NCBI GenBank assembly: GCA_000002435.2
Contig: CM018793.1
Length of the DNA stretch: 64,000 nt
Direction: 5' to 3' (one strand)
From: Giardia intestinalis
Lineage: Eukaryota
How positions within the stretch are numbered: the stretch's first letter is position 1; every line of letters starts with the position of its first letter. Under the pieces are notes generated by a model. The model was not told the origin of the DNA. It saw nothing but the letters and a program-made list of their open reading frames with translations, and did no database searches. Below, piece by piece: positions 22,801 to 42,775 of this stretch. Both the position numbers and the translations under genes were made by a program.

Positions 22801-23135
22801 CTCTGCAAACAAAGTATGAATTCCCACCGTTTCCTACAATTCCAGACGTTGCTTATCCATGTATAAACTACTCTGCCCCATTGCAATCTGCACACCCGGG
22901 TCCACAGCGAGTCAATCAGCAACCCAAGCCTCTCATGTTCTCCTCTATTCAGCCACTATCAACGCCCTCTGAGAAGGAATGTTGCACTCCTGAGTCCCGG
23001 GTTACGGTGCTTGCAAAGCCATGCAAACACATCTTTTCTCTACCCTGTGAAAAGATCGATAGTAACAATCTAAACTTAACTTGTCCTATTTGTCACAATG
23101 CAGTAACATGTATAATTCCCGAAAATAAGAATTAG
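19851..23135 (+). CDS. Ankyrin-repeat protein (21.1 family) with C-terminal Cys/His zinc-finger-like module
   Basis: About 17 ankyrin repeats in the N-terminal 650 aa. The C-terminus is PCKHIFSLPC...CPICH. ATG at 19851 preceded by aaaagagctaaaaaac. Confidence 0.75.
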   Translation: MSRGGSQLEGWFSWAIKGDYEKIKENSYIYARKTTDHDMTALMYAAVYGHVEIVRLLSTLEQGIRNSYGFTALMLSVLRDDVEPFQMTPDDMSENTLASINRRYDYTTRKSHRREIMMELVDGELSIRDPRGRTALMLAVEHGNRDAVEFLLNKGGEMTTDCGWNPLMHSIIRQNMHEFNKHYDRYSRKRNMSRQTPLMQAAMMGNISMVEKLIDTSTRKQDIRGLTALMYASKVNEVEVLNLLKEKENKMTDKAGMTALMYAAARGFSEAVAALKDLEHGQKDLYGWSSLIYSCLSNNLQSAMLLRSAESHIVDKSGTTALMYAAVLNRIDIIHILMNDLILKTDEDGTTALMHAAVFNRTDAVRILANYETKLTDSNGLTALHHAVTHNHIEVVKLLIPSEYSMRDSCGRTALYRAIELGYLGLVQVLGPMEKDGPLPTGWTRLMVCTIANKVDCFSQYIHEAKSFIPTGETALILAVQYSTLVTIQALLQYEATLSNSRTGRTSLMYAASQGREDVVPLLLLSEKMMQDKEGLTATMIAVISGNTSVLKALLTVPFSTGQSPAPFEVGMKDIYGQTALMKAAVLGNREAVEMLLPFESGLQDWNERCAIMYAQNRGHVDLVSMLLPFEGKIRDKLGNTYQSYKLGEGLDFKVPMSDLIVSGDHTSSAASRGIRLDSIQEESVDVYRTAHTDENTHLTSLSVRRNDVVEDEHQSIIRIGFSMDGSSRVIEVPRSIGDRSGTDHPNAKRGILLDSTIDDSDQHSLGTPRIIHEQNSSRLTARISSLLAASPHVEDIDAPLQILSKQTINKLGKASERHELPDLEAYTIEPNASLTDPTTSQSLGTSDFSSKKMFRPNSNSTREPIKDTNSAISYLSQLVPMVPITEHSPPNDPPVPKPERLLPTAEFSNSVSSVPIVDAPTNIPYALIRENNVIYRIPVHSGVQQATGAYPPYTFMENITQPYQQNLPYQALPSLPQMQSLSSLQTKYEFPPFPTIPDVAYPCINYSAPLQSAHPGPQRVNQQPKPLMFSSIQPLSTPSEKECCTPESRVTVLAKPCKHIFSLPCEKIDSNNLNLTCPICHNAVTCIIPENKN

Positions 23136-25312: not shown

Positions 25313-25936
25313 CTAATATAAGTCTAAAACGGATTCACAAGGAATGTCGCCAAGATTGATATGTGCCCAACTAACATCAACCAATCCATCCTTGAATAGA
25401 GACACGTTGTAGATAGCATTAAGAGTCGACAGTCGTTGTCCACACAGTGCCTCCAGAGCAAACTCTGCGTAGATTCTGTGCTTGAAATGAACTACAAGGG
25501 TGGTAACAAGACTATACTCAGTAACGGGGCCAATATGCTTGCAGATAGCCAACATTCCTTGCTGGTTTGCAGGCTTTTCAAAGACTATGGAGCTATTCCT
25601 CCCTAAAAATGAAGCTGGTCCCAATGCAGAGCGTTGCCGGCCAAATATATCGACGCTATGGGGCAGTTCTTCATCTTGGACTGCTGGAAGTCTGTGAAGC
25701 CGACGACAAGTTGCCCCTCTTGAGCATCTGCCTCGGGCATAGTCTAGGCACACTGGTGGTACTGTGGCTTTTGTTGTGGAGCTATCCTTAAACGGATTCA
25801 GGCAGGTTTCGCGCTCTACACCCCTAGTTGGCCTTCCACTAATGCTATCATAAAACAGGTTGTACACCCCCGCACCCGTTGCACTCTCTGCGCCTATCTT
25901 GCTTTGTTGATTTGTGGGACAACAACTCTTTGCCAT
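25313..25936 (-). CDS. CCCH zinc-finger protein with possible RRM-like C-terminal region
   Basis: C-x7-C-x5-C-x3-H (CLDYARGRCSRGATCRRLH). First ATG at 25936; the ORF track start at 25957 is TTG. Confidence 0.5.
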   Translation of the reverse strand: MAKSCCPTNQQSKIGAESATGAGVYNLFYDSISGRPTRGVERETCLNPFKDSSTTKATVPPVCLDYARGRCSRGATCRRLHRLPAVQDEELPHSVDIFGRQRSALGPASFLGRNSSIVFEKPANQQGMLAICKHIGPVTEYSLVTTLVVHFKHRIYAEFALEALCGQRLSTLNAIYNVSLFKDGLVDVSWAHINLGDIPCESVLDLY

Positions 25937-26002
25937 TTCTCCCAGAGTGCTTTTCAAAAATTAAGAGGAAGAAGAGGAAGTTGTGCATTTTAGATCTTGC
26001 AT

Positions 26003-26982: not shown

Positions 26983-28374
26983 TCATGTGGCATATGCATC
27001 AGCTCCATAGCAATCAGCTACATTGATAAGTACGGTGCCCCTTGTTTCCACGTGACAGAGCTGGCAAAACTCTCCAACAAGACGCCTCTCCTTGTTTTGA
27101 AACGTATAGTGACAACAGGGCAGCCTCAAAATGCATTGGAATCCAGTAGGGCAATAGTTAGGGAGGTTACGCATCACTGAGATCTTGATTGATCGCTCCA
27201 CTCCGTTGCGCAGCTCACTGATGCGTGCCTTCTTTGCGGCCAGGTCGTTGTGAAGTATTTGCCGAGTAGAGTCATAAATTCGTATTAGTTCTATTATGTT
27301 TTCACGATCAATATATGTTGAAATATTAGAGCTACTACCGAGGGCCGAGGGCCTAACAGACCTTGCTGTCAGGGCACCTTTGGTGTCAGATAAATTAGAA
27401 AGGGCAAGCCTGTCCTTTGGGAGATTCCGTGCACTTTTTGACTCGACTGCATGCTGAACTACTTGGGAGTTACCCATTGTCTCAAAAGAGCTGTTAGAGA
27501 TATCAAGCTTTGGTACAACCGCTTTCTTCGCCTGAGCTGAAGAGTGATAGCTATGAGATACTGATGTAGATTTCCTGGGGGTACTTACTGGACTACTAAG
27601 GACAGTGATCATCCTGTTAATCCCTCCGGAAACACTTGTCATATTATTTAGTTGCTTATCAAACCTGGCACTATAGTTTAGGGCATGCCGCTCTTCGCTA
27701 TAAGATAGAGGCGCATACATCTTCTTCTCCCGTCTTTCTGACCGTAGCTGATGCGTCTTGAGAATAAGAGGTTCGGCCTCCTCGCCATTGACACGAGTCT
27801 TCAAGGGTAGTAACAATTTGATATACTGCTTGATGCTGCACTTCTTATCATGAATGTCTCGCGGCGTGATTGGGTGTGCTCGTTCAACGGTGTTGCCAGA
27901 TTTCTCTATGACAGGCTCATCTCCCTGTGGGGTGTTACCTCTTACAGTCGTGGTACTGAAAGATAAATTGGAAGCCAGAATAGAAGGGAGCGAAAGATCA
28001 CGCAAACGGTTGGGCGTATCCTGACGTTGGTCTTTGAAAATAGTAGGATGATCAATGCTTGGCTGATAGCCTGTCAGAGACTGGTTACTCTTTGGAGACG
28101 ATGCTTCTTTATTACATAAATCCGGAGCAATGCCTATAACTTCTTTAGCTCCACGAACAGATGATGAACACTGTTCTCGACTGAATGATTTGATCGATTG
28201 TAGGGTCGTAGTTGCCAGTTCAGAAGACTTAGCAGGCGAATTCCCCATCTTTGCAATCTCAGTAACCTCGCCTAACGTTCCTTTCTGCATGGGTAAGAGC
28301 AACAAAAGCGCCAAATAAATCCTGCCTCCTTTGCCGTAAAATTTATATCCCATGGAACTGGATTTCGGTACCAT
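26983..28374 (-). CDS. Ser/Thr-rich coiled-coil protein with C-terminal Cys/His (C-P-x-G-F...LPCCHY...C-x2-C-H) module; paralog of 35466..36827
   Basis: The C-terminal 60 aa align with the C-terminus of the 35466..36827 product. An alternative ATG at 28353 sits inside the palindromic CCATGG shared with the divergent plus-strand gene. Confidence 0.5.
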   Translation of the reverse strand: MVPKSSSMGYKFYGKGGRIYLALLLLLPMQKGTLGEVTEIAKMGNSPAKSSELATTTLQSIKSFSREQCSSSVRGAKEVIGIAPDLCNKEASSPKSNQSLTGYQPSIDHPTIFKDQRQDTPNRLRDLSLPSILASNLSFSTTTVRGNTPQGDEPVIEKSGNTVERAHPITPRDIHDKKCSIKQYIKLLLPLKTRVNGEEAEPLILKTHQLRSERREKKMYAPLSYSEERHALNYSARFDKQLNNMTSVSGGINRMITVLSSPVSTPRKSTSVSHSYHSSAQAKKAVVPKLDISNSSFETMGNSQVVQHAVESKSARNLPKDRLALSNLSDTKGALTARSVRPSALGSSSNISTYIDRENIIELIRIYDSTRQILHNDLAAKKARISELRNGVERSIKISVMRNLPNYCPTGFQCILRLPCCHYTFQNKERRLVGEFCQLCHVETRGTVLINVADCYGADAYAT

Positions 28375-29245
28375 TGCACCGCGCCTGCGTACTATGGGCC
28401 TTCATATAACCATCCAGGAACAGAATATGATAGATGCCGCATTTCCCTGGTTGCTTCACGAATTTTCTCTGGAGCACGTGCAATATTTTGGGAAGATACA
28501 CACCTTGCTTCCAGATCCATATTTAATTGTTAGAGGGTTCAGGGAGGCCGTGGCAATTCCGGTTTTCTTGGTTTCCATAAATGGAGTTGATTGGATAGAG
28601 CTCCCTCTTGTTGATGAAAAGGTCTTGGAAGCCCTTGATGCCATAGGCTACGGGCTCACGTGCCAAAGACCTTTTACAGGAAAGTTAATGGAGCTGCTTC
28701 CTAGACCGGAGGAAGAAGAGGAGGAAGAAGAACAAGAGGAGCAGGAAGAGCAGGAGGAACAGGGGGAGGACCAAGGTGAAGAAGGAGAAGAGACTACTCC
28801 AATCAAAAAGGAACCAAAGCCAAAGAAAGAAAAGCCTATTAAGCCTACCGAGGCACATAGACTCAGTGTCTGCATAAATGAAATCCAGGCTCACTTACAG
28901 TTGATCATACCAGCAGCATACTCTAAGAGAGGATCTCAGCCTGCCCGCAATGCAACATTTCGGGGCCTCACAGCGGCAAGCAGCAAGAGCATTGCTATTA
29001 AAAGTGAGTATCTGGCCTTCCTGGAATCGGGCTACAGGGGGACAATAGAGGATTGCCCAACAATTGCAGACTATCCGAACAGCTTCATCTACCCGAGTAC
29101 ATTCGATCCAATAACAAACTGCCTCATAGTTTCAAGCCGTTTTTGGCCTGGATGCATTTACTATGTCTTCGCGCGTACACTTATCTGGGGATCGGCATAT
29201 GAAGGGACAGGATTGATGAATTGCAACGTACACTTAGAAATGTAG
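28352..29245 (+). CDS. Hypothetical acidic protein with poly-Glu/Gln and Lys/Pro-rich linker
   Basis: ATG preceded by gccgtaaaatttatatccc. The low-complexity stretch (E8-QEEQEEQEEQGEDQGEEGEE) is encoded by a GAG-rich tract at about 28700-28800. Confidence 0.5.
   Translation: MELDFGTIAPRLRTMGLHITIQEQNMIDAAFPWLLHEFSLEHVQYFGKIHTLLPDPYLIVRGFREAVAIPVFLVSINGVDWIELPLVDEKVLEALDAIGYGLTCQRPFTGKLMELLPRPEEEEEEEEQEEQEEQEEQGEDQGEEGEETTPIKKEPKPKKEKPIKPTEAHRLSVCINEIQAHLQLIIPAAYSKRGSQPARNATFRGLTAASSKSIAIKSEYLAFLESGYRGTIEDCPTIADYPNSFIYPSTFDPITNCLIVSSRFWPGCIYYVFARTLIWGSAYEGTGLMNCNVHLEM
28690..28800. repeat. GAG/GAA-rich low-complexity coding tract (poly-Glu)
   Basis: Direct inspection. It also creates a Ser/Cys-rich antisense shadow ORF. 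Confidence 0.7.
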
Positions 29246-29439
29246 GTATGTAAATTGCATTACTATTTGCATTAGTATCACTCTCGTGAACAACTGAATA
29301 GCTTACTTGTGTCTATGGCTTTCGGGCAGCACAAACTCCTTCTGTTAAGAATCTGTGTTAATCAAGTGATGTGTGGGACAGCTCTTTACTTCCTAAGATT
29401 GCACTATTAAATCTGTACTATTCCAAATTCAAAAAGCCC

Positions 29440-30171
29440 ATGGCGCGTTTAATTTTCATTGGTCTAGAAGCCACTGGGAAAACAGCTGCTTTTCATAATA
29501 TTACTGGCCAGAGAAACTATATGACGACACGTGAGACAGTCGGGATTAATACCTCCACATTTAGTGTTAGAGGCACAGGCTGTAGGTCGCAGGACATCTC
29601 CATAACACTAGTGGATTTGGGCGGCAGTGAAAAGATTCGCGACCTTTGGTCTAGTCAGTTCTTCGACACGTCTGGTGCACTCTATTTCATCCGGGACCCA
29701 GATACCCTCGATCTGGCTGTGCAGCTACTACTCAATATTCTCACCACAACCAGCTTTCCACTCCACATACTCATCAATAATCAAGAGGCAAGTACTGCTT
29801 CGAGGCTGGAAGCAGTGATTAAGGAACTTCTCGACGAGCATTCACCATCACGACCGTTGCTGTGCTGCTCTATCTGTGATATATCTGTAAGATACCGCAA
29901 AAATAAGACCCTCATAAGTATCATGAAAAGCTTAGGTCTCGCTGCTCATACCTACTATGTGGCAAATCGCGAAGAGATCATATTGCAGCAGAGAGATGCC
30001 CTTATGACATCCTTTCATCTTAACCTTTCTACAGAAGAGCGGAAACAAAAACTATTGGAACTCAGACAGCAACACAATTCAATGGATCCCCAGGAACAGG
30101 ATGCAGCAGAGACCCAGGAAGCGAAGGAAATTCAGATTCTAACACCAACTATGTTTACAACGTCTGTGTAA
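29440..30171 (+). CDS. ARF-like (ARL) small GTPase, divergent, with C-terminal extension
   Basis: P-loop GLEATGKT and switch II VDLGGSEKIRDLW (the canonical Gln is Ser here). NNQE stands in place of NKxD. First ATG at 29440; the track start is GTG. Confidence 0.55.
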   Translation: MARLIFIGLEATGKTAAFHNITGQRNYMTTRETVGINTSTFSVRGTGCRSQDISITLVDLGGSEKIRDLWSSQFFDTSGALYFIRDPDTLDLAVQLLLNILTTTSFPLHILINNQEASTASRLEAVIKELLDEHSPSRPLLCCSICDISVRYRKNKTLISIMKSLGLAAHTYYVANREEIILQQRDALMTSFHLNLSTEERKQKLLELRQQHNSMDPQEQDAAETQEAKEIQILTPTMFTTSV

Positions 30172-30264
30172 GACAATCTACGATCTTATCTTAAGTGAGG
30201 AGCAGATAGTAAAGAAAACTGTCAGATTGTTAAAAGAAAGGCAGACCACAGGCAAAGCATCTAC

Positions 30265-31971
30265 TCACTCCCAATTGTTTTGCAAGATGTCTTCGACGAA
30301 CATGGGGAGATATATGCTCCACCTGTCTGGAAGAGTATCCGGTACTCCGTGTCGTGGGACCCCGGGGTGCTGAGAGAAGTTGAACAGGGGGAGGAGGCCA
30401 TCTCTACCGCGTGTTGGACCGACGACCACATCAAATGCCAATTGGGCCGCAAGCTTTGCGTCTGTTGCCTTGGAATCTGTGCATCCGAAAATGGATGGTG
30501 ACCTCCCACAAAGTAACGGGTCTCTTAGGTCGTAGCGCGAAGCGATGGATTGGCCGGGATCCTTGTTGGATGCATCATCATTCAGATAGTCATTATATCG
30601 CATAAGAAGCTTGAAGTCTTCAAAGTTGTCCACCTTCGGGAGTTCTCTAGTGAAGATTTTATATCTGGACGACTCATTAAAACTCCAGTAAGGGTCGTTC
30701 TTCGCCGCATATCCAGAGATAACAAACAGCTCCTCGTCCATGGGCGTGTTGATTGAAAAGAAGTAGCCATCATTCAGGAGCATCTCTGTGACATCATAGG
30801 CTTTTATGTGCCCTGGAACAACCTCGTTAACATACAGCAGTGGCTTCCCATAATGGAGAATATAGTCCTTTTTCTCCTCTATTGTCATGTTCACTGTTGC
30901 CTCAGATAGAAGATCGAATAATCCGTAGTCGAGGCTGACCCACATGTTGTTGTACGTGTAAGAGTTCTCATTATTGAACACTTCTGACCACTGGTCTGCT
31001 GAAAATGCCATCATATTCGCTATCTGACTTCTCATCCATGTCAACACTACCGATCCATCCGTGCGTAGAAACTCATCATATAGGGTTGTGTTGAATGTGT
31101 GATAGGTCGTTTCCAACACAGCTACATTAGATTTTCTTCCTGTCGCAGATGTGACGGACTGGATATAGAAGTCGTCTATGGACGAGAAGTAACCAGGCAT
31201 CGACGAAAAGCTTACTTTCTGGTGCTGAGATTCTCCAAGGTCCCAGTGGAAGTGGTAATGCTTCATAGCCCTGTTAAACCCGGATCCGAAACTCGTCCAT
31301 GTGTCATGAGAGAAGAAGACATCCGACAGGTCAGGAGACATGCGGACAGCGGCAGAACAATGGTGGTGCTGTCCAAGTTCAATGCGCTCTCGCCGACGCT
31401 GGAGCATCTTTTCGCGGCGTGTAGGTTCGACAATAAGGACTGCCTCCAAGTCCTCCCAGTCTCCCACAGAATTATACATGAAGAACTCCTCTATAGTGTA
31501 AGGACGAATCTTCTCTTCGTTTGCGTATCTCGTGTATCCGTGAGTAAGACCCTGAAGCCAGTTGCAGGCGGTCAGATTGACTGCGTGCCAAAAGACGCTA
31601 GTGTTAACGTTGACCTGCTCCTTGATATATGCAAGGTTTTTCTGTGTGTAAGTATAAAACTCCACGGGGAATTCGCCATCGAAGCTATCCTCGAGCACGT
31701 TATTCATGAGATGGTATATGTGAGGCCCCATGGTGTACCCTTCGAGATATCCGGCCGCATATGCTTGCTCATAGTCAGGGATGTCGGGATTAGTCTTGAT
31801 CACCGCATACGTGTAGCCGAACTCAAACTTCCGGTCCTGGAGCTTAATAGAAGCTGCCCCCTCTGGATCAACGCCAGGAAGAATTCTGTTGTCTCGCGTA
31901 ATGGAATAGTATTCGACGTGGGAGACAGAAAGGGTCAAAGACAGAAGGAGAAGAACGGCAAGCGCCTGCAT
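30265..31971 (-). CDS. Phospholipase B-like (PLBD/LAMA family) secreted protein
   Basis: Signal peptide MQALAVLLLLSLTLSVS. It is about 568 aa with an internal HHCSAAV sequence consistent with an Ntn-hydrolase-type self-processing Cys. The family call rests on overall resemblance. Confidence 0.45.
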   Translation of the reverse strand: MQALAVLLLLSLTLSVSHVEYYSITRDNRILPGVDPEGAASIKLQDRKFEFGYTYAVIKTNPDIPDYEQAYAAGYLEGYTMGPHIYHLMNNVLEDSFDGEFPVEFYTYTQKNLAYIKEQVNVNTSVFWHAVNLTACNWLQGLTHGYTRYANEEKIRPYTIEEFFMYNSVGDWEDLEAVLIVEPTRREKMLQRRRERIELGQHHHCSAAVRMSPDLSDVFFSHDTWTSFGSGFNRAMKHYHFHWDLGESQHQKVSFSSMPGYFSSIDDFYIQSVTSATGRKSNVAVLETTYHTFNTTLYDEFLRTDGSVVLTWMRSQIANMMAFSADQWSEVFNNENSYTYNNMWVSLDYGLFDLLSEATVNMTIEEKKDYILHYGKPLLYVNEVVPGHIKAYDVTEMLLNDGYFFSINTPMDEELFVISGYAAKNDPYWSFNESSRYKIFTRELPKVDNFEDFKLLMRYNDYLNDDASNKDPGQSIASRYDLRDPLLCGRSPSIFGCTDSKATDAKLAAQLAFDVVVGPTRGRDGLLPLFNFSQHPGVPRHGVPDTLPDRWSIYLPMFVEDILQNNWE

Positions 31972-32046
31972 TTTGTTTTGCCAAATTAACGGAATTCAAT
32001 ATTTTACGTCCTTTGGCAGATCAAATTAGTAAAATGCAATTTATAT

Positions 32047-32757
32047 TCAAAGACGGTCTTGAAGCATTGAAATGAGGGGCTCTCGTAGGAGCCGCTGGGA
32101 TACTGCCAACCGTAGCGCACCCTGAGTATAGAAGGGGTACTCTGGATCTGCAGTCTCTGTATTGGCAGCTTCCAATTCAGTAATTTCATCCACCAAGGCT
32201 ATGCATTGACCAGCTCGACCGTTCACCAATCTGTCATAGTATGGAGGCAGGTACTGCACCTCTGCGCGAGACCTTAAATGAACGATTGTCCCTGGAGGTT
32301 GTGCAGTGCGCAAGGATGACAGGGCCTTACCAATCAGCCCCTGCAGACATGACCCGCTTTTCTCATGCTGTAATTCTATATGGTTGCACAATGGAGTCTT
32401 TGGATTAGGCTTTGTGCTTATGGGCAAATTCATACTAAGGCATAGCTGCTTAAGGACACCCGTAGGAACAATCCCCTTCTGCTTTATACAAACAGTATGC
32501 GTATTGGATTTTTCTCGCAAAAAGTTCCAAAACGCCATATTCTGAGCTAGAAGCACCCGGTCCTGTCCAAAGACACGTTTCTTAGCGAGCAGTAAATCCT
32601 CGTCAACCATCAGAGTGGGTAGAGACCCCCGTTCATCAGCGATTTTCCGGCGAAGTGCATGCGTTTGTGTTACCCACGTGCCAGCACCCAAGGAGCAGTA
32701 AACGAGGGCAGCAGTTAGTAGACCGTTGGTAGCGGCCTCTATGAAGCGCCGAGGCAT
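32047..32757 (-). CDS. Hypothetical protein with N-terminal hydrophobic segment
   Basis: ATG at 32757 preceded (minus strand) by ggaattttctagttgaaa. Confidence 0.45.
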   Translation of the reverse strand: MPRRFIEAATNGLLTAALVYCSLGAGTWVTQTHALRRKIADERGSLPTLMVDEDLLLAKKRVFGQDRVLLAQNMAFWNFLREKSNTHTVCIKQKGIVPTGVLKQLCLSMNLPISTKPNPKTPLCNHIELQHEKSGSCLQGLIGKALSSLRTAQPPGTIVHLRSRAEVQYLPPYYDRLVNGRAGQCIALVDEITELEAANTETADPEYPFYTQGALRLAVSQRLLREPLISMLQDRL

Positions 32758-32782
32758 TTTTCAACTAGAAAATTCCAAGACC
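32758..32782. promoter_or_regulatory. 25-bp AT-rich bidirectional initiator region between divergent ATGs
   Basis: Sequence ttttcaactagaaaattccaagacc separates the minus-strand ATG at 32757 from the plus-strand ATG at 32783. Confidence 0.5.
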
Positions 32783-33940
32783 ATGATTGTCTGCTTGTTG
32801 GTCCTGCTAGCAGTCATTGGAGGGAAACAATTAGCTGCGCTGCCAGCTGATGAAGTGGTGGAACAGTTAGAATTGGCTGTAGAGCGTTTTTTGATCCAAC
32901 GGAAAATCCCAGACCAGACAGAGCTGGGGTTCATACTAAATCATTTACACTATCAGACAAAAAAGGGTGGGGCTGTAGGAGTCCAGGAGCTCAATATAGA
33001 TAAAAATATCCATCAAATTGCCGTTATCGGGGACCTCCATGGAGATGCAGAATCCACTAAGTATATCTTTCAGAAGGTGCTTCTTAACAAAACATTTATG
33101 GAGTCTGGCATGGCTGTTTTTCTAGGAGACTACGTGGATCGGGGCCAGCATGGAATTAACGTTCTAACCTCCATTTTGGCAGCTAAAGTTGTTTACGGTG
33201 ATCGTGTCATAACTATTCGAGGAAATCATGAATCTGAAAACCTAAATCGCCGATATGGTTTTCTAGATGAAGTTTCCCGCGCATATGGACATGCCTTTTA
33301 CCATAAGACTATTGCTCCATTCTTCAAGCTTTTGCCCGTCGCGTATGTAGCCTCTGTGACTAGCCACACCACACTAGCAAATAGGATCCTTTTTGTACAC
33401 GGAGGACTGCCTAGAAATGCTACACTAGATACACTGATACTAAGATCCAAAGTGGATATTCCATCCAGCAACGATATCACAGATCAGAGATATACACATT
33501 CGCTAGAAAACTGTCTTCCCGAAGACGCTGTGCAAGATATTCTGTGGAGTGATCCTAGTCAGACAGTCCACGGAAAAGATACACTAAATGATTACACGAA
33601 AAACCCCAGAGGAGCAGGAATTCTGTATTCGAGTGAGTTTTATAGAAAGTTTGCCACAGAAAATAGAGTACTTGCAATGTTCAGAGGCCACCAGGTTGTC
33701 AAGAATGGGTTTAGAAGGGACTTTTTCAATCACTACACAGTTTTTAGCAGTTCAGACTACGTAGGCATGAAAAACAAAGGTGCATATGCTGTACTCGATG
33801 TTAGGTGCATGCGAACTACTATTACTTCTGAGGTTGATGTGATTGGCCTCCAAAACTACAAGGAGGTAAATCTGGCACACTGTATTCATGCTTATCCCGT
33901 CGTACAGAAGCCAGAGAACGGCACAACCAACAACAGCTAG
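32783..33940 (+). CDS. PPP-family Ser/Thr protein phosphatase with N-terminal signal peptide
   Basis: Motifs GDLHGD, GDYVDRG, RGNHE, HGG, LWSDP, RGH and FSSSDY are in PPP order. The N-terminus MIVCLLVLLAVIGG is hydrophobic. The track start at 32726 is TTG. Confidence 0.7.
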   Translation: MIVCLLVLLAVIGGKQLAALPADEVVEQLELAVERFLIQRKIPDQTELGFILNHLHYQTKKGGAVGVQELNIDKNIHQIAVIGDLHGDAESTKYIFQKVLLNKTFMESGMAVFLGDYVDRGQHGINVLTSILAAKVVYGDRVITIRGNHESENLNRRYGFLDEVSRAYGHAFYHKTIAPFFKLLPVAYVASVTSHTTLANRILFVHGGLPRNATLDTLILRSKVDIPSSNDITDQRYTHSLENCLPEDAVQDILWSDPSQTVHGKDTLNDYTKNPRGAGILYSSEFYRKFATENRVLAMFRGHQVVKNGFRRDFFNHYTVFSSSDYVGMKNKGAYAVLDVRCMRTTITSEVDVIGLQNYKEVNLAHCIHAYPVVQKPENGTTNNS

Positions 33941-33950
33941 ATACGCTGGC

Positions 33951-35441
33951 CTATAGCTTGCATACCGACTTATGAAAGCCTATCTTTTCGCTGAAGTTGG
34001 CGTGAGATGGGTATCTTTTATAGAACGGATTGTGACTGACTCCCTCCGTAGATATCCGCTTCAAAACACACATACGGCGTCCGTAAAGCATAGTCATCTG
34101 CTGTGGTAGGTGATAAAGGCACAGAAAATCAGGGTGTGCGGGGATATCGTCCTCAGTAAACTCATTGACTAAGTATGGCATCCAAAAGACCAGATGGCCG
34201 TCTAATTTCAGTGTCCATGCAGCAAACTTTAGGACAGACAAGAATATGTCTGCTGTATCCTGATGTTGGGATGCAACACTAAACTTGTTATAGTTCCAGC
34301 TACGTGTGAATACAGTATCTGTGACTAAATTATCAGTGTCGTCCACTGATTCGGCCGGATGTGCAACATCAGCTGCTTTCCCTTTTCTGGATCCAGCACG
34401 GATGGAATATGGGGGGTCACATAGTATTGCATCTATACATAGGCACTGATATGCTATCCTATTAACATCATGGTGCGAAATTATCGGTTGGGGAAGGCCA
34501 TACTGAAGAAAGTTCTTACTGAAGTTCTCGTCAGTGCTTTTCCCCCGCAGCACACGAATATTTAAGTCTCCGCCAATAGTAATACATCCATACGATGCGG
34601 CGCTGACCAGAATGCTGCATGTGCCAGCAAATGGGTCGCAGACAATATCTCCTGGCTTCAATCCTGCAACCTCACACATTATGAAAGCTAGCTCATGGTC
34701 CATGGAGGTTGGTCCAAGGAAGACTCGATCGGGGAGTTGATAAGTCTTCAGCTTATACCGCATCATCGATCCCAGATATTTGGAGGTGGACACAGCCAAA
34801 ACTACAGATCCCGATTGTTGATGGGAAGTTCCTGGAAGAATGTTTGCCTTCTCCTTCTTTCCATGCATCTGTAAGCACTCGTTAATAAGCATAAATCGTA
34901 TATTGTAATTTGTCAGATCACAGGATAACGACTGGAGTGCAGGAAGACGCTGTATTATTTCTGCGTAAAGCTGAGTCTTCTGCGAATTTGCAACCTTTTC
35001 ACCAACGATATTAGAGTCAAAGCGGTACCGTATAGACTCTGAGTATAGCACTACTACGGCATCTAAGAAGTGCTTAAGAGAAGCATTTGCAGCTCTCATC
35101 GAGCTTTCGCCAAGAAGTTCGATATAAGACGAAGCAGATGCCAAGACAAACCCATATGCCTTTATGAGGGTCAAGCTAGCTAGAAACGATTCTACGACCT
35201 CAATTTGCTTTATAAAGGGCGTATTGTCTTGATAGGTAGGATCCAGAGTAAAGAGCATTATTGGGCTTATATATGGCCTACGAATAACGACAGGAAGCCC
35301 TAACAGAGCCGCCCGAGCAAGAAATGTTGGCTCGTGAAAGGCAGCTTTAATTTCACCAAAGTTGGCAACCCATAGTAGAGATCTTTCCAACGGTGCGTCT
35401 GAGGTTGAGCTAGAGATTAAAGAGGAGGACTGGGACTTCAT
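33951..35441 (-). CDS. tRNA (guanine-N2)-methyltransferase Trm11/TRMT11-like
   Basis: SAM motif I DPFAGTCSILV and motif IV DPPY. First ATG at 35441; the track start at 35480 is GTG. Confidence 0.55.
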   Translation of the reverse strand: MKSQSSSLISSSTSDAPLERSLLWVANFGEIKAAFHEPTFLARAALLGLPVVIRRPYISPIMLFTLDPTYQDNTPFIKQIEVVESFLASLTLIKAYGFVLASASSYIELLGESSMRAANASLKHFLDAVVVLYSESIRYRFDSNIVGEKVANSQKTQLYAEIIQRLPALQSLSCDLTNYNIRFMLINECLQMHGKKEKANILPGTSHQQSGSVVLAVSTSKYLGSMMRYKLKTYQLPDRVFLGPTSMDHELAFIMCEVAGLKPGDIVCDPFAGTCSILVSAASYGCITIGGDLNIRVLRGKSTDENFSKNFLQYGLPQPIISHHDVNRIAYQCLCIDAILCDPPYSIRAGSRKGKAADVAHPAESVDDTDNLVTDTVFTRSWNYNKFSVASQHQDTADIFLSVLKFAAWTLKLDGHLVFWMPYLVNEFTEDDIPAHPDFLCLYHLPQQMTMLYGRRMCVLKRISTEGVSHNPFYKRYPSHANFSEKIGFHKSVCKL

Positions 35442-35465
35442 AAGGATTAATTTTATCTGGCGGAG
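35442..35465. promoter_or_regulatory. 24-bp AT-rich bidirectional initiator region between divergent ATGs
   Basis: Sequence aaggattaattttatctggcggag lies between the minus-strand ATG at 35441 and the plus-strand ATG at 35466. Confidence 0.5.
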
Positions 35466-36827
35466 ATGCCGCGTAATCACACCCAGGCCTCAATGTGGAG
35501 GCAATCACAAGAGCAACGAATTCTTGATACTGTTAAGCAATCAATAGAAAAGAGAAAGACCGCAGATCCGCAGGCTTCTACCTACACGTTTCAGCGCTTC
35601 AAAATGTCTGACCTTGGTCCTTCCGCACTCAGTCCCAATCCCTGTCGCTTACTAATGTCAAAGTTCACCTCTTTGGGGTCTGCAGTCAGTCCTCATGAGA
35701 TGACTGGCCGGCGTCTAAAATCCACCTTAATTGAGCGGTTCAAGTCCAGGTCTCCAAACCTTTACAGCTTCAAGAAGCAGCAACGCCAAATACCCCAATC
35801 TTTGACACTAACTCCGTCCGCTCATAAATCTGAAATAGATTTAAACTCCACACTAAAGAACATAACGTTTTCCGACTTAGACCTAGCTTCTGATTTAGTT
35901 TCGCAGAAACAGACAAGTAGCGAGACAATTGAGGAACTTCCAAATATAAGACCCGCCTTTACACAGGATCAACTTAAGCGCTTCAAACTCACATCTGATG
36001 CTGCCTACACGGCCATGGCATGCAGTACTATAAAGAGTAACGTGGCCAGAGACCTAACGGATCTCTCTATTTTGGACAGCACACCTACCCTTGCAAGTGC
36101 TACTAGAGAGCGCCTACTGATGCACATGTCCAGAGAAGACATTGAGCAAGAAGCCTTACGGAGTAGATTCCTTGAAGATGCAGGACTTAAAAAAGAAAAG
36201 AAGTATCCTCCCTATGTGAGACTAGCAGATAAAAGACACTCCGACAATATAAGCGCATCAGGAGAACGAATGAGAGTTCGCCGGATCATAACTGCTGATT
36301 CTGCCTTAGCCCAGAAACATCAGACAGAGCGCGAGAAGCTACTGCTAAGCAGTAGCTGCATTGTGCGAACTGTCAATCCAGCTCCATCAGAAAATCATGT
36401 GGAAAGCAAACCACGCACTAGAACAGGCACGGTACCACCTTGTCCTAAAGGACAAGCAGCTATTAGTACACCTCCCACTCAAGCACCTGCTGTGGCGCAG
36501 ACGGTCTTGTCTGACTACATAAGTAAGCAATCTCAAACAGAACTGATTGCAACATATCAGCAAGCGAGTATCAAGTTAAGGGAAGAATTACATGAAAAGA
36601 AGCGCAGGTGCAATGATCTACAAAACAGCTTACGATACTTACAGATTCTCGCCTCTATAAAGCTCCAGCCAGATAGGGTTCCTCCGGGATTCTACTGTTA
36701 CCTCAACCTTCCGTGCTGCCATTACTCTATTTATTCAGAGCTTCACTTTTCCATTGGAGACCTTTGTGTTAAGTGTCGGCAGCGGATAGAAAACTGTATC
36801 ATGATCAAGGCCGACATAGCACAGTAA
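35466..36827 (+). CDS. Ser/Thr-rich coiled-coil protein with C-terminal Cys/His (PPGFYCYLNLPCCHY...C-x2-C) module; paralog of 26983..28374
   Basis: C-terminal alignment with the other paralog. Its last 85 nt overlap the 3' end of the convergent MTAN gene. Confidence 0.5.
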   Translation: MPRNHTQASMWRQSQEQRILDTVKQSIEKRKTADPQASTYTFQRFKMSDLGPSALSPNPCRLLMSKFTSLGSAVSPHEMTGRRLKSTLIERFKSRSPNLYSFKKQQRQIPQSLTLTPSAHKSEIDLNSTLKNITFSDLDLASDLVSQKQTSSETIEELPNIRPAFTQDQLKRFKLTSDAAYTAMACSTIKSNVARDLTDLSILDSTPTLASATRERLLMHMSREDIEQEALRSRFLEDAGLKKEKKYPPYVRLADKRHSDNISASGERMRVRRIITADSALAQKHQTEREKLLLSSSCIVRTVNPAPSENHVESKPRTRTGTVPPCPKGQAAISTPPTQAPAVAQTVLSDYISKQSQTELIATYQQASIKLREELHEKKRRCNDLQNSLRYLQILASIKLQPDRVPPGFYCYLNLPCCHYSIYSELHFSIGDLCVKCRQRIENCIMIKADIAQ

Positions 36828-37787: not shown

Positions 37788-40700
37788 CTACTGGAGGTCC
37801 AGGGCCGAGAGGTTGTCGTCGAGGACGACGATGCCGGCGCGGATGTCGTCCACAAGCTTCTTGTAGTACTCGACGGCCTTCCGGAGGTTGCCCGTCTCGC
37901 TGATGGCCTTGCCGCACTCGTCTGTCTTCTGCGCAAGGTCCTCGTTGGCCTTGTCGAGCGACTCCTGCAGCGAGGCGATCTCTGCCTCGAGCGCCATGGT
38001 GCGCTCGTCGTTTGCGGAGTGGAGGTTGGCGTCGCGGGCCTCCTCCAGCTCCCTGTTCAGGGCCTCGATCTGGGCGCTGACCTCCGCGTTCTTGCCCTCC
38101 TGGTCGTCGAGGAGGCCCTGGAGTTCCGTGATGGTGTTCTCGCGGTCGTCGAGCTCCTCCTGGAGCTTCCTGAGCTCCTCCTGCAGGCTCTCGACGACGG
38201 CCGGGTCGATGTCGTTCGCCGTGTTCTTGAGCACCTCGACCTCCTCCTGGAGGTCCGCGATCTGCTTCCTGCTCTCGTCCAGGGAGCACTGGAGGGTGGT
38301 GATCTTGTCGTTGTTGGCGCTGTCCAGCTTGATCATCTCGTCCTTGAGATCGCTGCACTGCTGCTTGAGGCCGTCGATCTCGTCCTGGAGCTCGTCGATG
38401 AGGGACCGCTTGGCCTCGAGCTCGTCCTTCAGCGCTGCGTTCTCGTCCTGGACCTCCCGGAGGGCCGCAGCATCCCCGACCTCCTCGCCGGACTCCGGAT
38501 AGACGGTGGTCGCGGTGGGCTGGGCCTCCAGCTGTTCGCGCAGCTCGGCGATCTCGGCGTCCTTGTCCTTGAGCCCGTCGTTGAGGACCGCGATCTCGTC
38601 ATCGAGCTCTGCGATCCTCTCCTTGAGGTCGTCGTACTCCTCGGTGTCGCGGAGCCTCTGCTTGAGCTCGTCGATGGTGGCGTCCCGCTCCGCCACAAGC
38701 TCCTTGGCTCCGCTGAGGTCCTTCTCGAGCTGCTCGACGAGCTTCTGGAGGTCGCCGTCTGCTGCCCTGGAGTCGCTGAGAGCGTGGAGCTTGTCCTGGA
38801 GGGCCTCGGCGCTCTCCCTGAGCTCGCGCACAGTGGCCTCGCTGGCCTCGAGCTTGTTTGCGAGCTCGGGGTCCGCAGTCGCAAGCTCGGCCCGGAGCCC
38901 CTCCGTCTCCATTTCCTTGGCCTCGAGCGCGGCGCGCAGCTCTGCAAGCTCCTTGCGCGCGTCCTGGAGCTGGTCCTCGAGCATCCGGACGCGCTCGGTG
39001 TCCTCGGGCACCTGGGCGGCCTCGAGCTGGACCCGGAGTCCGCCCAGCTCCTCGCGGAGGCGCGCGGCCTCGGCGTCGCTGTCGACGAGGTTCTTGTGGA
39101 CGGCGTCGATCTCGGCGAGCTTGGCGTTGAGCTGTCCGCGGAGCTCTGCAACCTCGTTCTCGAGGGAGGCAACCCGAGCCTTCGCAAGCTCCGCGCCGTC
39201 GTCATCGGTGACGGCTCTGAGGCCTGTCGTCGCGCCCGCGAGCTCGGCGTCCTTGCTGGCGAGCTGGGCGAGGAGGCTGTCGACCATCTCCTTGCTCTCG
39301 CCGAGCTTGGCCTTGTAGCCCTCGACCTCGGCGAGGAGCTCGCTAAGCCGCTCGGTGTTCTCGGCGCTGGCGCGGGCAATGGCAAGCTCCTTCTCGAGTT
39401 GCTCGATGGTCTCGTCCTTGCCTTTCGCCGCGTCGATCAGCTCGTCGACGCGGCTGCGAAGGTCGGCAACCTCCTGGCGCAGGGCCGCGACCTCGCCCTG
39501 GTCCTGCGGGGCGCCGAGGTCCTTGCGCAGGCTCTCCACCAGATCTGTCAGATCCCGGACCTGCTTCATGAGCCGCTCCTTGTCGCCCTCCAGGGAGTCG
39601 CTCCTCAGCCTGCCGTTGCGTAGGTCCTCCTTGAGCGCGTCCATCTCCGCCATGATCCGCGCGTGCTCGCCCTTGTAGTGGTCGTTCTCGCCGGTGAGGG
39701 CGTTGACGAGGGCCTGCAGCTCGTCGACCTTCTGGACCAGGCCGTCGTCGAAGTCGAGGATGCTCGAGACCTTGGCCTGCTCCTCGGGGTCGACGTCGCT
39801 GATCTCCGTCTGGGCGTCGACGTACTCCGCACCGGACTGGTCGGACGGCGCCACGCTGAGCGGCTTCTCGCGGAGCTCGCAGAGGGCGTCGTTGAGCTGC
39901 CTCACCTCGTCCTCGAGGCGGCGGAGGCTGTGCTCCTTGTCGGCGACCTCCTTGCCCTTGTCTGCAGCGAGCTGCTCGAGCTCGGCGAGCCGCGCGGTCT
40001 TCTCTTCAAGTCCCCGAATTGCGTCGTCGCGCGCGGCAACGGTGCCCCGGAGGTCTGCGATCTCATCCTCGAGGATCTTGATGCGCGCGTCGTCTTGGGG
40101 CACGGTGCTGTCAAGCTGGGCCTTGAGGTCCGCGATGAGGCTCTCCTTCGCGTCCAGGGCGCCGTTGAGCCTGTTGAGCTCGTCCTTCTGCTCGCGGTTC
40201 TGGCCGTGCATGACCTCGAGCTCCTCGTTGAGGACCTGGACCTCCTCCCTAAGCGCGTCGAGCTCCTCCTTGAGCCTGTCGAGGTCCTCGGAGGATGCGC
40301 CGGGCTCATCGGTGTAGACCGTCGAACCCACTGGCTTCTGCTCGAGCTCCCTCCGCATGTCCTCCATCTCGGCCACCGCGCAGTCGTACCTGTCCTTGAG
40401 CGAGAGGAGCTGCTCCTGCGCGTCCTCCAGCTGCTCCTGGAGCTCGACAAGCCTCTCCACGTCGCTTGCGTCTCCGCTCGCCCGGGCGTTGGCGAGCGCC
40501 TCCTTGAGGTCAGAGACCTCCTTGTTGAGGTGGGCGACCTGGCCGCGGAGTCCGCTGGCCTCGTCTGCGCCGCTCTTCCTGAGGGCCTCAAGCGCGTCAT
40601 TGAGGGCCTGGAGCTCGTCTTTGAGTCGGCCGTTCTCCTCCTCCAGCGCGGTGAGCTGTGCCGGATCGGTCTCGACTGGCTGAGCGGGCGCGCCGTCGAC

Positions 40701-42671
40701 GAGCTCCTTGAGCTCTGCGATCTGGTTATCGCGCGCCTCGATCTCATCGGTCAGCGCCCTGATCTTCTCCTCGAGGGCGCGGATGGCCGTCTCGTCTGCG
40801 GGGGCGTCGCGCGACCTACCGCTGAGCTCCTTGACCTGCTGCTGGAGCTCCTCGATGCGCGCAAGGTACTCTGCAGCGTCTGCTCCCCGCGTGGCGTCTG
40901 CCTCCAGGGCGTCCACCCTTTCCTGGAGAGCCGCGCTGTTCTTCATCTCCTCCTGGATGCGGTCGCGGAGGAGCTCGATCTCGTCGTCGCGCTCGTCGAT
41001 GTCCTGCTTCGCGTTGGCGAGCTCGAACTGGAGGTCTGCGATCTGCTCGTTGAGCTCCTTGACCCTCTCGTCGTCGCCGCCCTGCGCGTCGGCGAGGAGC
41101 CTCTCCAGCCCTGCGATCTGCGCCTCGAGCTGGGCTACGCGTTTATCGCCCTCGGCAGACGACCTCTGGGCGCTCTCTGCGCGCATGACGAGGTCCTGGA
41201 GGCGGGCGATCTCCGAGTTCTTGGCGGCGATGATGGCGTCGAAGTCCGCCGCCTCGCCTCCCCTGGCCAGGGTCTCCTCGAGGCGGCTCTGGAGGGCCTC
41301 GAGCTCCCCGTCCTTGGCGAGGAGGGCCTGGCGGAGGCTCTCGACCTCCTCCTCGAGAATCTGCGTGGCGTACGCCTCGTCCTGGCTGGCGGCTGCCTGT
41401 TCCAGCTCGGCAATGCGTGCGTCGCGCTCATCGAGCATGGACCGGAGGCCTGCGAGTTCGTCCTCGAAGGCCCTGGTCTTCTCGACGATGGGCCGGAGCC
41501 CCGAGAGGTCGGACTCGCGCGCCTCCAGCTCCTCCCGGAGGGCGCTGATCTTGTTTTCGTAGTCTGCAAGAAGGGCCGCGTCTCCCGTGGGCGACGGGAC
41601 GGCGGTCAGGCGCTCGTTGAGGGCGCGGATGTCCCTCTCCTTCTCCGCGAGCTCGGACTGGAGCGCCCTGATCTTGTCCTTGAGGCCGTCGACGTCCTCG
41701 CCAGACCCGCCGGCGCTGAGCATTCCCTCCATGTCGGAGAGACGCTCCTTGAGGTCGCTGATGATGGCGTCCTTGTCGGCCGTCTCGGACTGGAGCCTGC
41801 TGATCTCGATGCGCAGCGTGGTGATGTTCTCCTCCATGTTCTTGACCTGGCCGTGCAGGGAAACGTTCTGGCCGATGACGATCGACGACTCGTCGTGCAG
41901 CGAGGCCAGCTTCAGCTCGAGCTGCATGATCTTGGACTCGAGCTCGTGCTCGAGCTGCGTCTTGGTCTGCGTGAGGGAGTCAGCCTGTCCGCCGGGGAAG
42001 CGGTGCGCGTCGATCAGAGAGAATGACAGGGAGAGGTCGAGGGCGGGGTTTCCGACCTGGGACGAGGAGAAGTTCATGAGCGAGGGGCGGGTGAACTCCG
42101 GAATCAGGTTCGCCTCATAGGACGCGAGGCACTGGACGATGTCGGTGTGCCCGTTCTCGGCCGCGAGCACGAACGCCGTCTTGTGGTCGTACGAGACGAT
42201 CTCCTTCTCGCGGACCACGAGGAGCTTCACCACGTCCGTGTGGCCGGCCGCCGCCGCGTACATCAGGGCGGTGCGCCCGCGCGCGTCTGTCTTGGCCTTG
42301 AGGTAGGGGAGCAGGTTGCTGACCGCCGCGGTCGACCCGTGCTCGGCGGCGAGCATGAGAGGCGTCATCTGGAAGTCGCCGTAGGTGGTGTTGACCTCAT
42401 AGGCGACGAGGCGCTTGCAGACGTCGCCCTTGTTGGCCTCGGCGGCGATCATGATGGCGGTCTTCCCCTCGCCGTTGACCATGCCGTTCTCGAAGAAGCC
42501 GAGGATCTTGACAAGCTCCACGTTCCCTTCGCGCGCGGCGATCATCAGGCCCGTCTCGCCGTCGCCGTTGACGGACTTGGCGTACTCTGCTGCGTGGTTG
42601 CGGATCAGCTCGACCTGGCCGGCCTGGATGGCCTCAAACCATTCCTCCACAGAAGACACCACTGCAGGCAT
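37788..42671 (-). CDS. Ankyrin-repeat plus giant coiled-coil protein; GASP-180-like axoneme-associated protein family (inference)
   Basis: N-terminal ~200 aa contain 5-6 ankyrin repeats, followed by ~1400 aa of continuous heptad coiled coil. 1627 aa is about 180 kDa. The gene is markedly GC3-rich (~65% GC versus ~48% in neighbours). ATG at 42671. Confidence 0.7.
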   Translation of the reverse strand: MPAVVSSVEEWFEAIQAGQVELIRNHAAEYAKSVNGDGETGLMIAAREGNVELVKILGFFENGMVNGEGKTAIMIAAEANKGDVCKRLVAYEVNTTYGDFQMTPLMLAAEHGSTAAVSNLLPYLKAKTDARGRTALMYAAAAGHTDVVKLLVVREKEIVSYDHKTAFVLAAENGHTDIVQCLASYEANLIPEFTRPSLMNFSSSQVGNPALDLSLSFSLIDAHRFPGGQADSLTQTKTQLEHELESKIMQLELKLASLHDESSIVIGQNVSLHGQVKNMEENITTLRIEISRLQSETADKDAIISDLKERLSDMEGMLSAGGSGEDVDGLKDKIRALQSELAEKERDIRALNERLTAVPSPTGDAALLADYENKISALREELEARESDLSGLRPIVEKTRAFEDELAGLRSMLDERDARIAELEQAAASQDEAYATQILEEEVESLRQALLAKDGELEALQSRLEETLARGGEAADFDAIIAAKNSEIARLQDLVMRAESAQRSSAEGDKRVAQLEAQIAGLERLLADAQGGDDERVKELNEQIADLQFELANAKQDIDERDDEIELLRDRIQEEMKNSAALQERVDALEADATRGADAAEYLARIEELQQQVKELSGRSRDAPADETAIRALEEKIRALTDEIEARDNQIAELKELVDGAPAQPVETDPAQLTALEEENGRLKDELQALNDALEALRKSGADEASGLRGQVAHLNKEVSDLKEALANARASGDASDVERLVELQEQLEDAQEQLLSLKDRYDCAVAEMEDMRRELEQKPVGSTVYTDEPGASSEDLDRLKEELDALREEVQVLNEELEVMHGQNREQKDELNRLNGALDAKESLIADLKAQLDSTVPQDDARIKILEDEIADLRGTVAARDDAIRGLEEKTARLAELEQLAADKGKEVADKEHSLRRLEDEVRQLNDALCELREKPLSVAPSDQSGAEYVDAQTEISDVDPEEQAKVSSILDFDDGLVQKVDELQALVNALTGENDHYKGEHARIMAEMDALKEDLRNGRLRSDSLEGDKERLMKQVRDLTDLVESLRKDLGAPQDQGEVAALRQEVADLRSRVDELIDAAKGKDETIEQLEKELAIARASAENTERLSELLAEVEGYKAKLGESKEMVDSLLAQLASKDAELAGATTGLRAVTDDDGAELAKARVASLENEVAELRGQLNAKLAEIDAVHKNLVDSDAEAARLREELGGLRVQLEAAQVPEDTERVRMLEDQLQDARKELAELRAALEAKEMETEGLRAELATADPELANKLEASEATVRELRESAEALQDKLHALSDSRAADGDLQKLVEQLEKDLSGAKELVAERDATIDELKQRLRDTEEYDDLKERIAELDDEIAVLNDGLKDKDAEIAELREQLEAQPTATTVYPESGEEVGDAAALREVQDENAALKDELEAKRSLIDELQDEIDGLKQQCSDLKDEMIKLDSANNDKITTLQCSLDESRKQIADLQEEVEVLKNTANDIDPAVVESLQEELRKLQEELDDRENTITELQGLLDDQEGKNAEVSAQIEALNRELEEARDANLHSANDERTMALEAEIASLQESLDKANEDLAQKTDECGKAISETGNLRKAVEYYKKLVDDIRAGIVVLDDNLSALDLQ

Positions 42672-42775
42672 GTTTTATTATCCAGATAGTGTAAAGGTCC
42701 ATTCGATTTTAAATTCACTTCCCGCCCCTCAGATGCGGCCGGCGTGCGCTGTGTGTGCGGCCGGACCCGCCTGCA

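Follow-up and report, generated by a model that had tools for sequence, protein, structure and literature searches.

A candidate one-zinc, RING-like module at the C-termini of two Giardia paralogues

Two hypothetical proteins encoded in a 64,000-nucleotide window of Giardia intestinalis WB, here called A and B, are true paralogues, and the paralogy covers solely their last ~105 residues, in which a 47-residue helix is followed by a Cys/His module of about 45 residues. The only similarity of this module that reproduces is to canonical Giardia RING fingers of the IAP-type C3HC4 kind, in their C-terminal half. We predict with good confidence that the module binds zinc. The chances are about even that it is a RING finger that lacks zinc site 1 (C1, C2, C5 and C6) and has kept site 2 (C3-x-H4 ... 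C7-x2-C8), and even or a shade better for RING ancestry as such; real E3 activity of A and B is putative and on balance doubtful. Read as a RING, the module would be a modest, lineage-specific departure from a familiar domain.

The ORF of A (GL50803_0017279, equivalent to GL50803_17279) lies at 26983..28374 on the minus strand and that of B (GL50803_00103895, equivalent to GL50803_103895; 453 residues) at 35466..36827 on the plus strand, with 7 kb between the two genes. Both match WB proteins annotated as hypothetical, and A has no Pfam family. The longest ORF of A has 463 residues; its true start is probably M29 (coordinate 28290, giving 435 residues), because the orthologues and the current WB annotation begin there. 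These two ORFs and that of the ankyrin protein discussed below, from which the earlier note built its case, are all present in the window. UniRef at present lists one of A and B under a wrong name, 'RNA polymerase beta' subunit', and a literature search with the identifiers GL50803_17279 and GL50803_103895 found no relevant paper and no experimental or localisation data.

That A and B end in alignable modules, as had been proposed from the DNA letters, is borne out. Their last 100 residues align without gaps at 30% identity (BLASTP E 4e-15), and profile-profile comparison with hhalign gives a probability of 98%. Outside the C-terminus we find no homology between them, and hhalign of the full-length alignments matches the last 106 columns only. 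The paralogues are restricted to Giardia, and the pair probably arose by an old local duplication. The N-terminal regions (~345 residues) are basic (pI about 9.5), contain a few conserved short motifs and have a composition which suggests that they lack a fixed structure; the long Ser/Thr-rich region described in the earlier note holds as a mild enrichment, with 21-22% Ser plus Thr against 16% in the other long ORFs of the window.

The same note had placed a coiled coil before each module, and a helix does stand there. In A, the helix (residues 357-403; 27166..27306, minus strand) is amphipathic and directly adjoins the Cys module on its upstream side; AlphaFold predicts it at positions 6-52 of a 112-residue fragment, and in the core of the helix the pLDDT exceeds 90. 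The homologous helix of B (residues 354-400; 36525..36665, plus strand) is placed by the gap-free alignment with A, and a TRQxLHNDL motif within the helix is kept even in a distant orthologue. Only 8 of the 14 heptad a/d positions in the A helix are hydrophobic. We infer that this helix may dimerise as a coiled coil.

The module itself spans residues 405-451 of A (27022..27162, minus strand) and 402-448 of B (36669..36809, plus strand), and its candidate ligands are C414, C420, H422, C437 and C440 in A and C411, C417, H419, C434 and C437 in B. The spacers first quoted for these motifs were wrong: from HYTF to the next Cys there are 11 residues, not 15, and from HYSIY 10, not 14, which puts the distance from His to Cys at 14 in both proteins. 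When 1.84 billion protein representatives are searched exhaustively with an HMM, only three clusters turn up: A, B and P0167, a syntenic orthologue of A in a distant Giardia, whose neighbours (radial-spoke-like, Arf and phospholipase B) are those found at A; no B-like gene lies beside P0167 on its 7.4-kb contig. A scan of metagenome contigs with module patterns matched 185 stretches, none of which encodes a relative. As anticipated, the shared Cys/His positions persist in orthologues: they are invariant in four to five Giardia lineages for each protein and also in P0167, and the five putative ligands C-x5-C-x-H-x14-C-x2-C are common to A, B and P0167. Of the module's 8 Cys/His columns 5 are invariant, compared with 7 among its 38 remaining columns (Fisher p = 0.02). 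It is the single C, the C-x-H and the C-x2-C that do not change, and the remaining Cys and His residues vary; in P0167 the second Cys of the 'CC' pair is replaced by Arg, which leaves C-x-H as the conserved motif. A P-x-G-F-x-C motif is likewise invariant in A and B. The 'CCHY' string also brought up the zf-CHY finger, in which about 5 residues separate PCC from C-x2-CH; with 16 residues there in A and B, and no Pfam match, this candidate was rejected on spacing.

Conserved cysteines need not hold a metal. They could serve in disulfides, redox sensing or acylation, with the module acting as a structured cap for the helix, and it is consistent with such a role that AlphaFold has only moderate confidence in the module and that there are five ligand candidates rather than four. 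Against this, paired C-x-H and C-x2-C motifs whose first Cys follows a conserved Pro are the typical signature of a zinc site, and the RING-like similarity of the module is obtained by two methods. Structural disulfides are not expected in cytosolic proteins of Giardia, which also counts against metal-free cysteines, and we regard that reading as very improbable.

The proposed relationship to RING fingers is carried by profile comparison. Against a profile of 18 Giardia C3HC4 RINGs the module scores 27.7 in hhalign (79.6% probability), a score that none of 200 column shuffles reaches (maximum 19.4), and against the G. muris subset of RINGs it scores 32.6 (90%). Sub-profiles built from A only and from B only each score above 59-60 of 60 shuffles. 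The Giardia RINGs used are real ones, of IAP/MGRN1/MEX3C/MYLIP/Mdm2 type (E 1e-15 to 1e-7 against PDB sequences). In the hhalign columns the module's C-x-H falls on RING C3/H4 and its C-x2-C on C7/C8. Its fifth candidate ligand, an additional Cys, precedes C3 by six residues; nothing in the module corresponds to RING site 1, and A and B have no family-wide stand-ins for C1, C2, C5 or C6. With a shallow profile built from three human IAP RINGs the result is 1.4% (score 13.3), and 12 of 100 shuffles reach that score. Pfam, scanned at E up to 10 with A and B entire and with their C-termini alone, finds no family, and thus no RING, U-box, zf-MIZ or zf-Nse. Searches of PDB sequences give only insignificant matches, at E 0.71 and 6.6 with a 112-residue profile and at E 0.11 (the best, a RING-H2) and 0.75 with a 77-residue profile.

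An initial AlphaFold run with the 112-residue fragment gave a confident helix and a module that stayed below pLDDT 50, unfit for a fold search. With a 77-residue fragment one of five models converged (the other four have pLDDT 39-44), and in it residues 21-60 reach pLDDT 71-86. The model runs from a helix through a hairpin tipped by P-C-C-H into a third strand and shows no central RING helix; AlphaFold2 does not place metals, and the fold it gives the module is not independent of the sequence resemblance. Foldseek against the PDB returns nothing at E of 0.001 or better. The module might instead be a small zinc domain of another kind than a RING (a zinc ribbon, a rubredoxin-like fold or a treble clef) that binds nucleic acid or protein, with the basic N-terminus helping to bind nucleic acid or microtubules. 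A zinc ribbon has two C-x2-C or C-x2-H knuckles and two beta-hairpins; A and B keep one C-x2-C, their other motifs being C-x-H and C-x5-C, and the structural matches to zinc ribbons are insignificant. We consider a non-RING domain of this sort rather unlikely.

How far a RING without site 1 departs from its canonical form is best seen ligand by ligand. A canonical RING has eight ligands, C-x2-C-x9-39-C-x1-3-H-x2-3-C-x2-C-x4-48-C-x2-C, which hold two zinc ions in a cross-brace. A and B have only the equivalents of C3, H4, C7 and C8 and the non-canonical Cys at -6, which is invariant and has no RING counterpart. Compared with the IAP/Mib/MGRN1-type C3HC4 RING (zf-C3HC4_3, PF13920, found on Giardia 21.1/ARP-2 proteins), they lack C1, C2, C5 and C6 and can bind at most one zinc; they also have no predicted central helix and no Pro after C7. 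Canonical RINGs dock an E2 with this Pro, in whose place A and B have Q, H, R, V or I. Pfam models miss A and B. The U-box differs in the other direction: it has no zinc site at all, whereas A and B keep the full C-H-C-C set.

If the RING reading holds, a single Zn2+ would hold the beta-hairpin together with the C-terminal strand in a RING-like fold, and the abutting helix would join chains in pairs (A-A, B-B or A-B) in the manner of helix-flanked dimeric RING E3s; such proteins (TRIM32, TRIM23, KAP1, Rad5, RNF8, Bre1) are among the closest systems to A and B. The dimer could then act as an atypical E3 for an E2 of the ubiquitin family, or as a RING-like partner or scaffold that has no catalytic role, with substrate-binding or regulatory sites in the N-terminal region. 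Degenerate or non-catalytic RING partners are known from dimeric E3s (MAEA/RMD5 of CTLH-GID, BARD1, MdmX), from which A and B differ in lacking LisH/CTLH/CRA and BRCT domains and any sequence similarity, and their own pairing is hypothetical. Such a reading would offer an initial way into the structure and function of two hypothetical Giardia genes conserved across assemblages. Should the module bind an E2, it would illustrate, in a compact and naturally occurring form, how far a RING can be pared down; should it bind none, its interest would be purely local, as a dimerisation or zinc module confined to one lineage.

A single zinc is also the principle of the SP-RING (PIAS/Siz) and of Nse2/Mms21, in which C-x-H and a C-terminal Cys pair hold the RING fold together and non-metal contacts take the place of site 1, and the earlier note had likened the layout of the modules to such fingers of SUMO E3 ligases. 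A, B and P0167 do have the single-site layout, C-x-H-x14-C-x2-C with no site-1 ligands, although the likeness is one of layout only; the Nse2 SP-RING, like the A/B module, lies C-terminal to a helical region, which in Nse2 binds the Smc5 arm. The resemblance goes no further. A and B lack the CP[IL][ST] motif of loop 1, have no Pfam match to PINIT or SAP (accessory domains of PIAS), and show no profile similarity: hhalign gives 0.2% against PIAS2/3 with Siz1/2 and 0.07% against Mms21 with NSE2, and against a combined SP-RING and Nse2 profile the score of 7.4 is reached by 91 of 100 column shuffles. The search of Pfam for zf-MIZ, zf-Nse and U-box that the note had proposed is silent, as given above. 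That the modules are SP-RING/Nse2-type fingers and the proteins SUMO E3 ligases is highly improbable. Giardia has no identified SUMO E3 (PMC4030834), and one may speculate that a helix-paired A/B dimer with one-zinc RING-like domains is the missing E3 for SUMO or another ubiquitin-like modifier, a single-zinc class evolved independently from the ubiquitin-type RING rather than from the SP-RING lineage; we would give this idea very little weight.

The third module to be considered belongs to Ankyrin repeat protein 1 (formerly Protein 21.1; 19851..23135, plus strand; 1094 residues, identical to XP_001709227), which falls outside the A/B family. Its C-terminus reads PCKHIF-S-LPC-x11-CPIC, that is C-x-H-x17-C-P-x-C, so the spacers of 4 and 13 residues first quoted should be one residue (S) and 11. 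A single lineage-specific family, in which the A, B and ankyrin modules descend from a common local ancestor, was suggested by their lying within 17 kb with P-C-x-H ... C-x2-C at the extreme C-terminus of each, and both the A/B and the ankyrin modules match the Giardia RING profile at about 80%. The lineage-specific Cys/His module in A and B stands; the three-member family does not. The A/B-module HMM does not match the ankyrin ORF even at E up to about 25, direct hhalign between the modules gives a probability of 3%, and the ankyrin protein lacks both the A/B helix and the invariant P-x-G-F-x-C motif. Nor is its nearness to A and B remarkable, since its family counts hundreds of genes, which are spread across the chromosomes and form no evident clusters (PMC7641422). 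Descent of all three modules from one local ancestor is thus largely refuted, and improbable.

Alignment of 22 proteins instead identifies the ankyrin C-terminus (22983..23120, plus strand) as a decayed RING of the known ankyrin-plus-RING 21.1/ARP-2 family (PMC3218828; PMC7641422), not specifically related to A and B. Proteins of that family have ankyrin repeats of TALM type and, after them, a C-terminal zinc finger (RING). The ankyrin C-terminus aligns on the canonical RINGs borne by the protein's paralogues, and four ligands and two prolines alone are invariant: C1058-x-H1060 and C1078-P-x-C1081, or RING C3, H4, C7 and C8. Orthologues keep only C-x-H and C-P-x-C, and thus not the eight ligands of a canonical RING; the 'CC' and 'LPC' cysteines occur in assemblage A only. 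In hhalign this relic matches Giardia RINGs at 80.5%, SP-RING with Nse2 at 62.7% (0 of 200 shuffles) and IAP RINGs at 30%, each above every shuffle; it is the only one of the modules similar to the SP-RING and Nse2 profile, and canonical RINGs match it at least as well. Its Pfam matches (Prok-RING_4 E 0.022, zf-RING_2 E 0.032, zf-RING_5 E 0.074) are all below the gathering score.

The ankyrin protein would then be an independent case of the same kind of RING decay as A and B, and, if both readings are true, RING site 1 has been lost at least twice in Giardia and domain-based counts of its E3 ligases and of 'ARP-2' ankyrin proteins are underestimates. The current annotation places the protein in ARP-1, as ankyrin only (PMC7641422). 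By the two features of 21.1/ARP-2 proteins, its ankyrin repeats are present (Pfam E 4e-91) and its RING is present as a site-2 relic only.

The last 100 residues of two proteins annotated as hypothetical, GL50803_0017279 (A; ORF 26983..28374, minus strand) and GL50803_00103895 (B; ORF 35466..36827, plus strand), align without a gap at 30% identity (E 4e-15). When the alignments of their full-length orthologues are compared, hhalign returns 98%, with the match limited to the last 106 columns. The alignable C-terminal modules reported in the earlier note for A and B are real and reflect paralogy. The unit common to both proteins is a 47-residue helix, which AlphaFold predicts confidently (core pLDDT >90), followed by a module of ~45 residues. 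The DNA source, Giardia intestinalis strain WB, belongs to assemblage A, and we find orthologues of A and of B in four or five Giardia lineages each, including assemblages B and E and Logan assemblies. Among 1.84 billion cluster representatives, searched exhaustively by HMMER, a 112-column profile matches exactly three proteins: the representative of A, that of B, and P0167, which stems from one Logan assembly (SRR30592944, contig L001, 1-7448; contig GC 0.52). The module of P0167 is 43% identical to that of A. Its gene is flanked, as A is, by radial-spoke-like, Arf and phospholipase B genes, with a Torus/CCCH gene also on the contig and the order partly rearranged; because these neighbours are common to both, P0167 is the positional orthologue of A in a distant Giardia. 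No B-like gene for this lineage appears on L001 (1-7448) or in the representative search. Together, A and B make up a two-gene family confined to Giardia and carrying a putative cryptic half-RING.

The module columns that never vary in the ten sequences (P, P, G, C, L, L, P, C, H, G, C and C) give the motif C-x5-C-x-H-x14-C-x2-C. Invariance is concentrated in Cys/His columns (5/8, compared with 7/38 of the others; p = 0.02), and the Cys/His module proposed earlier for A and B is real and conserved, with the correction that the spacers first quoted were off by about four residues. The fifth invariant Cys of the module lies at position -6. The second Cys of the 'CC' pair is Arg in P0167, and both the His behind C-x2-C and the distal DCYG Cys vary. 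The helix adjoining the module is itself strongly conserved, its TRQxLHNDL being kept even in P0167.

Is this module a RING? The Pfam check suggested for it returns no family at E up to 10, and there is no significant sequence match in the PDB. Aligned to 18 Giardia RINGs, it scores 27.7 in hhalign (79.6% probability, 35 columns), a value reached by 0/200 shuffles (highest 19.4). In this alignment L-x-L-P-C-x-H falls on the strand plus ligands C3 and H4, C-x2-C falls on C7 and C8, and the hydrophobic strand behind C-x2-C is matched as well. The Pro that is canonical after C7 is missing from A/B, and its position varies between orthologues. The similarity persists when A and B are taken alone, each beating 59-60 of 60 shuffles, and when the RING set is split, with 90% for the G. 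muris sequences and 35% for those of G. intestinalis. The Giardia RINGs are themselves real IAP/XIAP/MGRN1/MUL1/MEX3C/MYLIP/Mdm2-type RINGs (E 1e-15 to 1e-7 in the PDB). It does not show against a shallow three-sequence profile of human IAP RINGs (1.4% for the module). A zinc-binding, RING-like module, as the earlier note suggested in general form, is plausible; an SP-RING identity is not supported for A/B: real SP-RING and Nse2 sequences give 0.07-0.2%, and 91/100 shuffles score equally. When AlphaFold was run again, on the 77-residue helix plus module with ten sequences, one model converged (residues 21-60, pLDDT 71-86) and the other four stayed at pLDDT 39-44. The converged model consists of the helix, then a beta-hairpin whose tip carries P-C-C-H, then, behind C-x2-C, a third strand, with no central helix; Foldseek finds nothing significant for it, the best hits being MCM-type zinc ribbons (E 0.2 or worse). 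The best reading, moderately supported rather than proven, is a RING-derived domain that keeps zinc site 2 only.

A third protein, 'Ankyrin repeat protein 1' (formerly Protein 21.1; 19851..23135, plus strand), had been tentatively placed in the same family on the strength of its C-terminus. We find that it does not belong there: a six-frame scan of the window with the A/B-unit HMM misses it, comparing its module alignment directly with that of A/B in hhalign yields 3%, and its C-terminus aligns instead to the RINGs of its ankyrin paralogues. Many of these carry a canonical C-terminal C3HC4 RING (PF13920), an architecture already known (Manning et al. 2011, PMC3218828; ARP-2 class, Xu et al. 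2020, PMC7641422). In the 22-protein alignment only P-C-x-H and C-P-x-C (C3, H4, C7, C8) are invariant; the 'ECC' and 'LPC' cysteines are restricted to assemblage A. Pfam RING models fall under threshold (E 0.02-0.07). In profile comparisons the C-terminus reaches 80.5% against Giardia RINGs, 62.7% against SP-RING plus Nse2 (a profile made from PDB sequences) and 30% against the three human IAP RINGs, each score exceeding all column shuffles. From these scores and the site-2-only invariance, we conclude that the C-terminus is a decayed, site-2-only RING whose layout has converged on an SP-RING appearance. Annotation as ARP-1 (ankyrin only) missed this relic (22983-23120, plus strand), and counts of Giardia ankyrin plus zinc-finger (ARP-2) proteins may omit decayed members.

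In A and B, a single zinc held by C-x-H and C-x2-C would join the hairpin to the C-terminal strand. By analogy with helix-flanked dimeric RING E3s, in which a helix likewise adjoins the RING, A and B would be expected to form homo- or heterodimers through the conserved helix. In RING-E2 complexes, site 1 forms one of the two loops touching the E2; site 1 is gone from the A/B module. Like BARD1, MdmX or MAEA, the dimer would be no less likely to act as a non-catalytic partner or scaffold than as a catalyst. The module resembles one-zinc RING variants in working principle, while its sequence places it in none of the SP-RING/Nse2, U-box or canonical RING families. No SUMO E3 turned up in Giardia's genome (Vranych et al. 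2012, PMC4030834), and it is very improbable that A/B supply Giardia's missing E3, whether for SUMO or for a different ubiquitin-like modifier.

Both proteins are basic (pI ~9.5). Their N-terminal regions, likewise basic and mildly S/T-rich, contain 6-7 [ST]P sites and conserved motifs of short length, and are probably regulatory or partner-binding segments. The label 'S/T-rich' captures only a mild enrichment (21-22% S+T over a background of 16%). Some UniRef/NCBI records name A 'DNA-dependent RNA polymerase beta' subunit/160 kD subunit', which neither Pfam families nor any other evidence here supports and which looks like a propagated annotation error. The 463-aa ORF of A overlaps the start of a divergent radial-spoke-like gene (Pfam Radial_spoke E 1.5e-7; window 28290-28374 and 28352-29245). 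In orthologues, as in the current WB model, A begins at M29 (28290), and with that start the overlap disappears. Neighbouring genes at 25313-25957 and 33951-35480 (both minus strand) encode a protein with a Torus domain plus a CCCH zinc finger and one with a UPF0020 (RMKL-like) methyltransferase domain (Pfam E 9.7e-10); neither shows a connection to the module.

Elsewhere in the window, GC rises from ~0.45 to 0.60-0.67 within 38000-44000, over a 1627-aa ankyrin plus long coiled-coil ORF (37788..42671, minus strand) with long spurious ORFs on the opposite strand. At 48888-50927 (plus strand) lies a 679-aa ORF that is rich in Cys, has numerous CxxC motifs and partly matches VSP (E 2.7e-15); it is probably a VSP-like gene or one for a high-cysteine membrane protein. 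A perfect inverted repeat (2595 nt, 100% identity; 57138-59732 and 61406-64000) reaches the window end, its arms separated by 1673 nt. Each arm carries an identical 673-aa VSP gene (57213..59234, plus; 61904..63925, minus; Pfam VSP E 3.7e-85), making a pair of the convergent, tail-to-tail identical type reported for Giardia genomes (PMC7641422).
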